DNA of 64,000 nt from Eledone cirrhosa (lineage: Eukaryota). The first letter of the stretch is position 1. Each line of letters opens with the position of its first letter. The notes under the pieces are model-generated. The model searched no databases, had not been told where the DNA came from, and was given only the letters and a program-made list of their open reading frames with translations. Shown here one piece after another: positions 18,961 to 56,747 of the stretch. A program made the position numbers and the translations under genes. The stretch spans positions 61,690,001-61,754,000 of the forward strand of contig OZ024745.1 of NCBI GenBank assembly GCA_964016885.1, written 5' to 3'.

Positions 18961-19150
18961 AACGAAGGAAATGTGGTAAGGAACCAGGTGGACCATAACG
19001 CACCAAAGTACTCAATACTTAGGGTAGTAGAGTGGGTAATAGGAACCAGTAAGACCCCGACGGATGAGCTCAAGCCGTTTCGACGGCTAATTCGAATTTA
19101 TAGCCGTCGAAACGACTTGAGCTCAGCCGTCGGGGTCTTACTGGTTCCTA
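18961..19150 (-). mobile_element. Short palindromic PLE family C insertion
   Basis: Arms 19040-19089 and 19101-19150; homologous to 44459, 48391, 53702 and 56545. Confidence 0.85.
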
Positions 19151-20005
19151 TATATATATATATGGTGGCTGCCAACTCGTTTTCGAGTATGGCCACTACT
19201 TTATATCCATGTAGGAGAACCCCTACCAATGCGCTGAATGAGTGTAACTTTTAGTCCAGCCAGTGACTTGAAAACTCTGGTACAAACACTACACCTGTGA
19301 CAATTACTGACATATAGTGCTGGGCCCATAGTACCATGTGATGACAAGTGCAGAGAGATCTCCAGATATAAAGCAATGCCTGTGCCGTGAAGCTTTTATA
19401 GTGAGCAAAGGCACTGCACAAAACCAGTCCCACTCTCTTAACCAAGATGATATTTACCAAAAAGAAGAACAAGTCAACATCATTGGATACCATCAGGGTT
19501 GCAGGTGTTATATCAGAGTTTTCCTTCTCCTAGAATTCTGCCTTGAGAAAGGCTAAGAGGTCATCTCACATACATACACACATACATACACATAAATATT
19601 CATACACATGTACATATATATATATATACATACACATATACATACATATATATATACATATACACACATACACATACATACACATATACATACATACACA
19701 TATACATATATATACATACACATACATACACATACATACATATACATACGCATACATACACATACACACATACACACATATATATGTATGTGTATGTGTG
19801 TATGTATATGTATGCGTATGTACATATACATATACATGCATATATATATAAATATATATATATACATATATATATGGCCCAGTATAGATTGTAGAATGTA
19901 TATAATATATATACATATACATACATATATAATACTCACACACACACATATATAATACTCTCTCACACACACACACATATATATATATATACATATATAT
20001 ATATA

Positions 20006-20188
20006 ATTGTTTCTACTTTAGGCACAAGGCCAGCAATTATCCATTGCATTACTGGTACTTTATTTTATCGACCCCGTAAGGATGAAAGGCAAAGTCAACC
20101 TCGGTGGGATTTGAACTCAGATCGTAAAGGGACGTAACTATGCTGGAAAGCATGGCGTCTGACCCTCTACCGATACTGCCAATCCACC
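20006..20188 (-). mobile_element. SINE family A
   Basis: Reverse complement nearly identical to 6212-6400. Confidence 0.9.
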
Positions 20189-20544
20189 ATATACATATAT
20201 ATATAATATGTGTGTGTCTGTATGTATACATGTGTGCAATTTTGTATGTGGATCTGTAATTTTGCGTAAGTAGGGGACTATATCATAGCAGATATTTCAT
20301 GATATCTTAACATCTATATGTTGAAAATGCATTTTCAAGAAAACTGTGAGACCCATTTAGTTAATCACTCTACTTGTCACACCCATTTAATCTGCCATAA
20401 ATTATATGTCATGTAAAAATCAATCCCAGTTGTGTGATAAAAAGGAATCCGCGGAACTCTGAATAGCAACAGAAAGTAATCTCAGTAATATAATGAATAT
20501 ATAATGTATACATATTATATATACACATATATAATATAATTAAG

Positions 20545-22182
20545 TATACATGTATATATATATATATATATATATATATATATATATATATATATATATA
20601 TACATGTATATATATATACATGTATATATATATATATATATATATATATATATATATATATATATATATATATATATATACATGTATATATATATACATG
20701 TATATATATATATATATATATATACATATATATATATATATATATATATATATACATGTATATATATATACATGTATATATATATATATATATATATATA
20801 TATATATATATATATATACATGTATATATATATACATGTATATATATATATATATATATATATATATATATACATATATATATATATATATATATATATA
20901 CATATATATATATATATATATATACATATATATATACATATATATATATATATATATATATATATATATATATATACATATATATATATATATATATATA
21001 TATATATACATATATATATATATATATATATATACATATATATATATATATATATACATATATATATATATATATATATATACATATATATATATATATA
21101 TATATACATATATATATATATATATATATATATACATATATATATATATATATATACATATATATATATATATATATATATACATATATATATATATATA
21201 TACATATATATATATATATATATATATACATATATATATATATATATACATATATATATATATATATATATATATATATATACATATATATATATATATA
21301 TATATATATACATATATATATATATATATATATACATATATATATATATATATATATATATACATATATATATATATATATATATATATACACATATATA
21401 TATATATATATATATATATATATATATATATATATATATATATATATATATACATATATATATATATATATATATATATATATATATATATATATATATA
21501 TATATATATATAGTATATAGTAATAATAATAAATTTGAATTTGAAGACTAAAATCCAGAGAGGGCTCGATAAGGATAAATATATATCAAATACATAAGAA
21601 CCGTAGAGCAAATATTTATATATATATATATGTATATATATAAATATATATATATATATATATACATATATATATATATATATATATATATATACATATA
21701 TATATATATATATATATATATATATATACATATATATATATATACATATATACATATATATATATATATATATATATACATATATATATATATATATATA
21801 TATATACATATATATATATATATATATATATATATATACATATATATATATATATATATATATACATATATATATATATATATATATATATACATATATA
21901 TATATATATATATATATATATATATATACATATATATATATATATATATATATATACATATATATATATATATAAAAATATATATATATATATATATATA
22001 TATATATATATATATATATATATATATATAGTATATAGTAATAATAATAAATTTGAATTTGAAGACTAAAATCCAGAGAGGGCTCGATAAGGATAAATAT
22101 ATATCAAATACATAAGAACCGTAGAGCAAATATTTATATATATATATATGTATATATATAAATATATATATATATATATATG
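20545..22182. repeat. Long interrupted (TA)n array with two copies of a PLE family D tail
   Basis: ~107-bp unit at 21512-21618 and 22030-22136; its reverse complement matches 58541-58638. Confidence 0.9.
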
Positions 22183-53794: not shown

Positions 53795-53891
53795 ACCCCG
53801 ACAGCAGAGCTCAAGCCGTTTCGACGGCTATTTCTGGACTAAATTAAAACTTTTAGCCTGGTGAATAAATAGCCGAACTTGTCAAGGGGGT
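53795..53891 (-). ncRNA. Type I hammerhead with U3-A8 core
   Basis: cccc-TTGACAA-gttcggctattt...aaatagccgtc-GAAAC-ggc..gct-GTC-gggg. Confidence 0.7.
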
Positions 53892-56091
53892 ACTTCCTTA
53901 TATGGGAAGATTGTAGTTGTAAAGAGGATTGGTTAAAATTTGTTGTAAACACAGATAAGTCTATCATGGCATTTGGTGGGAGGTAGGGGTTGCTGAACTT
54001 GCCTGTAGAACAATAGGGGAGTGAGTGGAGCGGTCAAGCGTTGAAAGTGATATGTATACAGCAGATTCTAAGGATAGTGTATGAACAGGAGGAGGGAGGT
54101 TATAGAATAGGTAATTCGAATGAGAGTAGGAGACAATAAAAGATACTAGAAATAAAAAAAAATATATATAAAAAAGATAGTCAGAAATGAATAAAAAAAA
54201 TCACAATGCTATCAAACAAATACAGGTTAATAAGTTGAGAATAGAAAAAACTTGTAGAAATTGAGTAGTAACAAAACTGATACAAAATTAAAGGGGTTTA
54301 ATACATCTGCTATAAGTAGTTAGTAAAACGTATTCGGCCAATTCTATCTTGAAATTACAGCGGTGGGGGAACTGATGCTACAGGGGCCCGATGGGCTGCA
54401 TCGGGGTAGGTGAAAGGTGAAAAGCAGACAAGGAAGAAAATAGGGGGAGGGGGAAATGATAGGATGAGACAGAGGAAGAAGAAGACAAAGGGGAAAAGAA
54501 AAGAGAAGAGAAGGATCTACCTATGTAAGCTGAGGTTTCCCCTAATTTATTCGGCAAGTGGGGGGTATCAGCCCTTGTCTACCCACCTGGATCGTTATGG
54601 GCTTTGAGGGCGAGGTAAATCCTACGCAATCTGTGTTTGCATGAGGTTACCAGTTCGTCTTTCTTGATAAAGTTAATATAAATGATAACATGATAAACTT
54701 AAATTTAAAGAAGAAGAAGAGGATTTGGAGCGAGATATGGGTATATGGAAGGGGTGAATATGAGGAAATGCAAGAAGAAAATAAATAAACACATACATAC
54801 ATAAATATTTAAATGAATAAATAGAAATATTAGGGAATAAATATATAAAAGGAAAAAGAAAGAGAGAGAGAGAGATGAGAGAAGAAGAAAGAAGAAATAA
54901 CGACAACAAAGAAGGAAAGAAATGAGGTGGATAGGTATAAAGACCGTTGTTTTCAAATATTAAGTCAAATTGAGGCAACGAATTAAATAACATGAAATTT
55001 TTAATATCTTTTGTATTTGGTTATGTTTATATATTATATCAAAATTAAACTATATAAAAATATTTTATATAGCTATCAGATACATAGTTTAATTAAGTAA
55101 TATATTCATTAAATATTTTGTTACAATATTTTAAAACATTTTTATCTTTAAAGCATATTTAAATAATTATTAAATATGTATCATACACATATATCACCAT
55201 CCGTATATATATTTTATATTATATTAAGATCATTTATTATCTGAATTATTCTTTTCTTTATAAAATCATTTCAATTCATTGATTGTCATTTCATTACAGG
55301 ATTAAATTGTAGTTATATTTATTCTCAAAAGTTTTATTATTTCTAATTTACTTCCATAATTACTTATTATTATATATAGTTTCCCTTTAAGGATTACCAT
55401 ATATTATTAAACTGTATAAATCATGTTAAATATACTTTAGAAAGCTATTCGGACAGAACAAAATTATTTACGAAGAATGTAAACAAAGGAAGGTAACTCG
55501 TTCATCATATGTGAACATTTAAAACATTTAAGTATTTTGAAAACCAAAAGATATTTCAAACCACAAATCAAGACATTTATAGTTAAACAATGACCTTTGT
55601 AAATCCAAACATAGGATACTGAGACACATCATGAGATTAATTTACTAGATAAAAACGACAAACAATTTTTACCGGTGAGGCAAAACGTTATATATATAAT
55701 TTTTTAAGAATTATTAATAGTCAATATTTTTTCGAAATTTGTATAATGCTTGAAAAGTTCTCCCAGATTTGTGTTGACAGCTGCTAAATAACTCATTTTT
55801 CTTATTAATTAAATTACCATAATTTGTAATTATCATTAGAGTCTCTAAATTGCAAAGATTGCAATTTGGTGAAATGGATGCATTCCGGTAGGAATCAGAA
55901 TTCTTTAACTTACTGCAAGAAAATGAGTATTTGACATGTTTTCCTTCAAAAACCATATTAATTGTGAGAGTGATGTAGAATTTTTTTTTATCTGGATTAG
56001 AAAAAGAATATTTATGATTGTAAAAGCGAATCTTAAACTTAGATGAAGTGGCACCAATGTAGTTATATGTATTATTATTATTAGTCTTAAT

Positions 56092-56281
56092 TGGCGGTGG
56101 ATTAGCAGTATCGGTAGAGGGTCAGACGCCATGCTTTGACGCATAGAGTTACGGTCCTTGCCATTCTGAGTTCAAATCCCGCCGAGGTTTACTTTGCCTT
56201 TCATCCTTACGGGGTCGATAAAATAAAGTACCAGTAATGTACTGTGTAATTGCTGGCCTTGTGCCAAAAATAGAAACAATT
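56092..56281 (+). mobile_element. SINE family A nested in PLE family C
   Basis: Full-length copy. Confidence 0.9.
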
Positions 56282-56544
56282 GTTACCATTATTTAGAGGT
56301 GTCCTACTATTATTCGTATTTAAACTATTATTATTTTTATTCCAATTAACTAATGTGTTATTATTATTATTGTTATTATTGCTGGCCTTGTACCTAAAGT
56401 AGAAACAATTATTATTGTTATTATCGCTACTTATATGGTGGTTCAAATTAAGATTTTTACTATTTATTTTTGCTATATTTTTAGCAATATTCATAGTTAT
56501 TGAATAAGAGAGTTTAACTGTGAGTCAGTATATATATATATATA

Positions 56545-56747
56545 TAACAAAGGAATTGTGGTAAGGAACCAGATGGACCATAACGCACCAGAGTACTCAA
56601 TACTTAGGGTAGTAGAGTGGGAAAAAGGAAAAAGTATGATCCCGACAGCAGAGCTCAAGCCGTTTCGACGGCTATTTCTAGACGCGAGTCCAGAAATAAC
56701 CGTCGAAACGGCTTGAGCTCTGCCGTCGGGGGTCATACTTTTTCCTT
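56545..56747 (-). mobile_element. Short palindromic PLE family C insertion
   Basis: Arms ~56625-56678 and ~56691-56747. Confidence 0.85.

Follow-up and report, generated by a model that had tools for sequence, protein, structure and literature searches.

The question raised by this locus is what fixes the point at which short palindromic insertions turn back on themselves. The stretch analyzed here, referred to as the window, comprises 64,000 nt of the Eledone cirrhosa genome (assembly GCA_964016885.1, contig OZ024745.1, positions 61,690,001 to 61,754,000). It contains four short palindromic insertions attributed to a Penelope-like element (PLE), all within (TA)n, together with a longer copy of the element that carries a hammerhead ribozyme motif. 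A preliminary description of the window had proposed that the insertions are retro-derived rather than miniature inverted-repeat transposable elements (MITEs), that the inversion is made anew at each insertion from uncleaved RNA with two fixed priming points, and that the ribozyme hairpin sets the switch point. Most of this held up, except for the role assigned to the hairpin. We propose instead that each palindrome consists of two reverse transcripts that ran off a predicted capped RNA start at position 139 of the element and were end-joined, with the capped start rather than the hairpin setting the switch point. Judging from the sequence evidence, we put the probability of this reading at about two in three.

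Position 1 is window base 53702, the first base of the longer, or parent, copy, and numbers rise along the plus strand. The open reading frame (ORF) of the element lies on the minus strand, so that the RNA sense is minus, the plus strand reads like cDNA, and position numbers increase towards the RNA 5' end. The parent (53702..54666, minus strand) is a 5'-truncated copy covering positions 1-965, with the last ORF codons, the 3' untranslated region (UTR), the pseudo-long terminal repeat (pLTR) and the tail. The four palindromes, A-D, were found where they had been described, and each folds as a long hairpin in which a tail-bearing long arm on the minus strand starts at position 1 and an inverted short arm on the plus strand ends at position 79. 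The long arm of A (18961..19093, positions 1-133) is separated from its short arm (19101..19151, positions 129-79) by a 7-nt filler (19094-19100). In B, the long arm (44458..44610, positions 1-153) runs past 139, and an 11-nt filler (44611-44621), partly a local mini-inverted repeat, precedes the short arm (44622..44706, positions 164-79). C joins a long arm (48392..48524, positions 1-133) to a short arm (48525..48585, positions 139-79) whose inner end was scored as 143 by the script via a 5-nt overlap and is read here as 139. D has a long arm (56546..56683, positions 1-138), the filler GCG, and a short arm (56686..56748, positions 139-79) that follows an untemplated G at 56686, a candidate cap copy. 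The centres thus differ, with inner ends (long|short) of 133|129, 153|164, 133|139 and 138|139 in A, B, C and D, respectively.

The type I hammerhead motif of the parent (53794..53891, minus strand) was read directly from the sequence and from folds, and its activity is a prediction. The core, UUGACAA, is of the U3-A8 type, a variant known from PLEs (PMC4209133). GAAA is found at positions 121-118 and GUC at 101-99, and the predicted cut lies between 53800 and 53799 on the minus strand. Stem II is formed by 53867-53875 with 53825-53833 (minus strand; positions 166-174 with 124-132). Computed folds show helix II and its loop as a hairpin, yet not the active fold (z = -1.95), and the 150 listed of 190 Rfam matches included no hammerhead family, only sub-threshold matches of microRNA type. 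In each of the four palindromes, the centre falls either in loop II or at the top of stem II and is thus upstream of the GUC, which agrees with the preliminary description; its more specific placement inside stem II has to be amended, since the arm ends of the wider sample peak in loop II, at positions 138-139, 6-7 bases past the stem.

This wider sample consisted of 180 copies, taken in chromosome order and chosen by tail motifs outside the hairpin only. Four duplicates were removed from the locus set, 10 of 100 listed places for one tail motif and some of those for the other were left out, and copies more than 199 bases long from the initial genome search were kept out of the end statistics. 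Long arms ended before position 129 in 58 copies, at 129-147 in 103 and beyond in 19; of those that reached 129, 103/122 thus ended by 147. About nine in ten sampled copies were short (161/180 long arms ending at or before 147). Inverted copies were recognized in 129/180 cases by the script, which runs too far through microhomology and misses some short arms, and in 73/93 by BLAST. Of 309 arm ends, 58 fell at 138-139, in hammerhead loop II, corresponding to 29 per base, against 10.6 at 133-137, 8.4 at 140-147 (where overlaps raise the value), 1.9 at 100-128 and 0.2 at 148-165. The ends are clearly non-random, as expected under the preliminary description, and this pile-up, with the extra C described below, marks position 139 (53840, minus strand) as the putative capped RNA start. 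Across the genome, 6,916 arms depart from the reference after 139, of which about 9 in 100 are a read-through variant, and 4,185 do so after 138. Ends at 140-143 made up 15/54 classified ends in AAC subfamilies versus 4/70 elsewhere, and may mark a second start. In two runs of unspecified type, depth fell 15- to 25-fold between positions 121-130 and 151-160, and loose ends were present at 79 and 139; since one of them may be the assembly's own sample, they were not counted as independent.

Would a hairpin produce such a distribution? Stem II might stall the enzyme or fold the cDNA back, and self-priming has been proposed for PLE junction palindromes (PMC3846280). All four window centres, and those of 75/129 inverted copies with both ends, do fall within 124-174. 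The peak, however, lies past stem II rather than at the stem base, and only 1/309 ends fell at 166-174, where snap-back of stem II would put them. Snap-back would also preserve the entire loop II, and hardly any copies show this. Single-arm copies halt at the same base as the palindrome arms. Furthermore, a stall should act on every pass, whereas 17 of 20 full-length copies that reached the loop sequence a second time read through it and 3/20 stopped, against 103/122 on the first pass. Long copies also bear an inverted arm ending at 79, and their inner ends are scattered from 111 to >2,000. Finally, a stall does not predict an extra C, and snap-back of a single cDNA can give neither the fixed end at 79 nor the form in which the tail-less arm is the longer one inside. 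We therefore consider it improbable that the ribozyme hairpin sets the switch.

The bases next to the arm ends point in another direction. Bases after 138 and 139, junction types, read-through and the C or G of single-arm copies were counted by hand on the first 100 listed matches. Where a single-arm copy had one C or G separating its arm from (TA)n, this base was C in 88 and G in 12 of the first 100 of 140 listed for 139, compared to 19 C and 16 G in all 35 for 138 (p = 7e-5); the excess of C was present in both subfamily groups. When all junction types were taken together, the next base was C in 39/91 cases after 139 (9 read-through variants dropped) and in 13/100 after 138 (p = 4e-6, among the matches listed). 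In L1 and SVA, an untemplated G at the 5' end is accepted as a mark left by the copied cap (PMC3287187, PMC4859970), and the Eledone insertion ends suggest that the extra C after 139 is the expected footprint of a copied cap. Taken together, the shared stop of single-arm copies, the near absence of ends at 166-174, the read-through on the second pass and the C after 139 argue for an RNA 5' end that happens to fall in loop II.

The outer ends are equally constrained. Position 79 (53780, minus strand), the end of the tail-less arm, is a candidate second start of reverse transcription, and such fixed outer ends are known as the PLE tail (PMC11167929). The two fixed priming points of the preliminary description correspond to the outer ends at 1 and 79. 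Pairing was counted in the short palindromes of one subfamily: 520 of 534 paired a tail-bearing with a tail-less arm, seven had two tail-less arms and seven had two tail-bearing arms. Independent choice of arm types would yield about half mixed pairs. The asymmetry fits the two internal starts and the extension of both strands described for Poseidon_Ac (PMC11167929). A small bulged hairpin is predicted by folding just 3' of position 79 on the RNA (53750..53775, minus strand), and a similar one lies beyond position 1 in head-to-tail copies only; they fold in 2/5 and 1/5 full contexts, respectively. In four copies (L035, L058, L066 and L119), the long arm ends at 76-88 beside a full short arm, a non-overlapping layout that resembles L1 twin priming, although two of these may be internal deletions.

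A true MITE, or a long palindrome later shortened by central deletion, would share the short size, inverted arms, TA sites and high copy number of these insertions. A MITE would have equal terminal inverted repeats and a fixed interior; here the arms are unequal, with the 78-nt tail on one side in 520/534, the centres vary, and the sequence is the 3' end of an element that encodes reverse transcriptase (RT). Nor would a later deletion put a C after 139 in single-arm copies. (Within (TA)n, a target-site duplication would not stand out.) We regard this origin as next to impossible, and the retro-derived origin given in the preliminary description is borne out by the RT and the GIY-YIG-like ORF.

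Left and right arms were compared in 69 palindromes by distance and column tests in place of trees. The two arms of one palindrome differed by 2.9/51 bases, versus 5.7 between copies, whether of the same side or the other. A 9-base haplotype was identical in both arms in 49/69 palindromes, where random pairing expects 13%, and rare alleles were shared between arms in 8 cases and confined to a single arm in 62. The variants that had been described as copy-specific are indeed shared between arms, but they are subfamily haplotypes present in many copies, and at these sites the arms of B differ. Just two columns separated left from right arms, both near the ragged outer end, and clustering of arms by side was not found by either test in the 69 palindromes. 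Junctions were blunt, short-overlap or filled. The commonest, 133|139, which is also that of element C, was shared by at least three subfamilies and came in both mirror forms (12 and 7 cases among the first 100 of 520 listed). Because junctions vary and the same ones recur across subfamilies, the inversion must arise de novo, as the preliminary description had it. Two ends finishing at 139 could anneal via the terminal six bases of each, and either strand of the joint would then yield one of the mirror forms; 133|139 in both forms is what two annealed ends predict.

These data also bear on whether the short copies might be transcribed from an internal promoter and multiply in the manner of short interspersed elements (SINEs), as hairpins or single arms with inherited junctions. 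That most sampled copies are short, that junctions recur (19 of the first 100 listed) and that short copies keep all sequence downstream of 139 would agree with this. However, the recurrent junctions are confined neither to one subfamily nor to one mirror form, and left and right arms are separated by no column except the two near the outer end. Moreover, what lies 3' of position 1 is missing from the short copies (178/185 continue into TA), and with it the second small hairpin, on which a start at position 1 may depend. SINE-like spread thus appears very improbable.

For most copies, the template was not cut at the GUC, in agreement with the uncleaved RNA of the preliminary description. Among ends in 85-128, 12/93 were at the predicted ribozyme cut, 97-99 (p = 0.02). 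This mild enrichment hints at rare cleaved templates but does not suffice as a case for cleavage. At L216 (both arms), L044 and L105, arms end exactly at position 98.

In the scheme that we favor, the RNA would start at position 139 of the upstream pLTR, in hammerhead loop II, and then run through position 1 into the 5' UTR and the ORF; it would hold only the 3' half of that ribozyme. At 26/30 loci with an ORF start, position 1 of an upstream copy directly preceded the 5' UTR, placing the pLTR head-to-tail, and transcription of D. virilis Penelope begins within the upstream pLTR, driven by an internal promoter (PMC2377424). The enzyme would cut both (TA)n strands and start copying internally at 1 and 79, one start per DNA end. 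Cutting and internal starts have been shown in vitro for another PLE, PAc, which extends both strands from two internal sites without need for ribozyme cleavage (PMC11167929), and are presumed for the Eledone element. Both cDNAs would reach the RNA 5' end, after 139 and 61 bases, and would often gain one C from the cap, to judge by the footprints. The two free ends would be trimmed, filled or annealed by 1-6 bases of self-complementarity and joined, giving a fresh centre each time. Longer arms, such as those of B, would derive from RNAs extending further 5'. The window palindromes are likely accounted for in this way, D by an extra base, C by the recurrent junction, A by trimmed ends and B by a longer template. 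At one locus (L213), a 142|142 palindrome precedes a 257-nt unit that is present 2.5 times and comprises 142 to 1, the 5' UTR and the first codons; this would represent a single case of a template with its 5' end at 142 that continues into the ORF. (The unit repeat, L213:650-1370, looks like template jumping or a ribozyme-less mini-circle.)

Several points weigh against this scheme. The capped start itself is a prediction from insertion footprints. Among full-length copies, 3/26 end at 135-136 and 17/26 go past 147, so that 139 cannot be the sole template start. Many arms end at 140-144 or 133-137 and need extra starts, added A's or trimming, and 44 of the first 100 of 13,083 listed arms with an A after 139 read through the loop. 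This read-through and the full-length copies past 147 imply that other templates exist, such as RNAs with upstream starts, multimers or circles of the kind proposed in PMC4209133. In our own 185-copy sample, the C at 139 was seen in 4 of 7 filler cases (p = 0.04). After 138, the next base was G in 52/100 among the matches listed, often followed by C, and this G is accounted for in 17 palindromic joins only. The single C may stem from terminal-transferase activity at any 5' end, and that one RNA serves both primers is a presumption of the model. As to the G after 138, a modified first nucleotide may have been miscopied, with the cap base following, or copying may have been re-primed at a GAC upstream.

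Alternatively, the RNA 5' end at 139 may be real but processed, either by a cut in loop II or by a 5' exonuclease halted by a bound protein, with the C added independently of a cap. Position 139 does lie in an AU-rich loop, most full-length copies ignore it, and all of the run-off end mapping fits a processed end equally well. Against this, the extra base is position-specific, being C at 139 and not at 138, and the sense context at 139 is TTAGTC (TCAGTC in one variant), which we take to resemble the initiator consensus. In addition, in one case, L216, both arms end at the predicted ribozyme cut (98|98) without an added C. We consider a processed end unlikely. By eye, there was no good match to the downstream promoter element consensus. 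An RNA polymerase III promoter was dropped by eye, since a T5 run precedes the start sites in some subfamilies.

Carrying the capped-start reading further, we tentatively picture an mRNA that starts inside its own ribozyme and a two-headed enzyme that grips the two small hairpins near the 5' end and primes both strands on one RNA; such a start would leave the 5' copy unable to self-cleave. Most events would then be abortive cap run-offs united head to head, and long and full-length copies would need a second, more-than-unit template (a circle or multimer) lacking a 5' end at 139. We think this extension has appreciably less than an even chance of being right. If it is, a single element relies on two kinds of template, and the stubs in the genome would reveal where PLE transcripts start and are capped, independently of RNA data.

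The palindromes belong to a PLE of the Hydra clade, an assignment based on motifs. The element has at least 18,606 copies, with two exact tail motifs matching 6,400 and 18,606 places in the 3.0-Gb genome. ORF pieces carry the RT motifs DIESYY and YRDD and a C-terminal IYQC..YIG, and no intact full ORF was seen among them; the top Atlas hit (0.93) gave RVT_1 at 76% and GIY-YIG at 11%, while Pfam and PDB sequence scans of the ORF pieces returned nothing significant. The RT, the GIY-YIG ORF, the partial tandem pLTR, the one-sided tail and the predicted hammerhead are all features of endonuclease-containing (EN+) PLEs. HSDKTG contains the DKT of the Hydra clade and CNCPDRSMC its CxCX5C linker; the endonuclease region has one Cys between its two motifs and no CCHH, along with CNLC and CKH or CKY. 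The sequence reads RWR where the Hydra clade has RWK, and the unit length is about 3.1 kb, estimated from L167. The flank at position 1 was TA-rich in 178/185 copies. The Neptune clade, considered first, was dropped against the Hydra definition. Short copies hold the ribozyme 3' half only and are not tandem, which sets them apart from non-LTR retrozymes, whose tandem units lie between complete hammerheads.

Other features of the window were noted alongside. At the tail end of B, about 22 bases of flank are duplicated in inverted orientation on either side of the TA run (44329-44450), and similar duplications were seen at L044, L036 and L058. Just upstream of C (48200-48260), a minimal hammerhead motif with a canonical core (CUGAAGA..GAAA) from another family was noted by eye. 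Next to the parent lies an inverted repeat from a different family (52560-53445) that is much larger and has arms duplicated in part. An unrelated perfect palindrome of about 195 bases (6018-6211) has an arm motif resembling the 5' part of the PLE ribozyme region and may be a stub from a different PLE family. Copies of a short interspersed repeat, tRNA-like in appearance, are present at 56098-56250 and 6215-6350, and the repeat also flanks several loci.

The origin of the inverted repeats and one-sided tail of PLEs has been named as an open problem (PMC8557442, PMC11167929). The layout itself is already known: EN+ PLE insertion units have an inverted 5'-truncated copy, a tail at one end and a junction palindrome (PMC3846280; PMC8557442). 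The Eledone insertions share with these units the head-to-head inverted copy, the tail on one arm, partial tandems, (TA)n targets and a pLTR hammerhead. They differ in a tail of 78 nt, compared to 30-40, and in that most are stubs whose two arms stop at one base, followed by an extra C. In their accessible parts, PMC3846280 and PMC8557442 propose self-priming or endonuclease resolution rather than cap run-off with end-joining, and the available text of a retrozyme preprint (10.64898/2026.07.22.740005) does not treat inversions. A literature search that covered journals other than subscription ones found no published account of cap run-off with end-joining. To this problem, thousands of natural insertions contribute three rules, namely one end per start site, a shared inner stop and an extra C.

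Compared to the Hydra clade (PMC8557442, Craig et al. 2021), the Eledone element is alike in the DKT, the CxCX5C linker, the lack of CCHH, the CxxC and CxH around E and N, the C-terminal endonuclease, the (TA)n target and the hammerhead, and unlike it in RWR for RWK and a unit of about 3.1 kb for <3 kb. Poseidon_Ac (PMC11167929), from a different clade, likewise has two internal starts bounding the tail, extends both strands at an AT-rich target, and dispenses with ribozyme cleavage; the Eledone sites are 78 nt apart, and the joining and inner ends of the arms lie outside the scope of that work as far as its available text goes. MITEs resemble the stubs in being short, with inverted arms, TA sites and high copy number, and differ from them in the unequal arms, variable centre and RT-element origin of the latter. 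Such stubs risk being misfiled as MITEs or microRNA hairpins, and inversion points that fall on a hammerhead need not involve the ribozyme.

In L1 twin priming, each of the two cDNAs derives from its own part of the RNA, and the position of the second site varies. The Eledone cDNAs would instead have the same 61 bases in common, each copied from a fixed site, so that a palindrome results. In both systems, two target-strand primers would give rise to the inversion, and an untemplated G, which marks full-length 5' ends in L1 (PMC4859970, PMC3287187), has its counterpart in the extra base at the Eledone arm ends.

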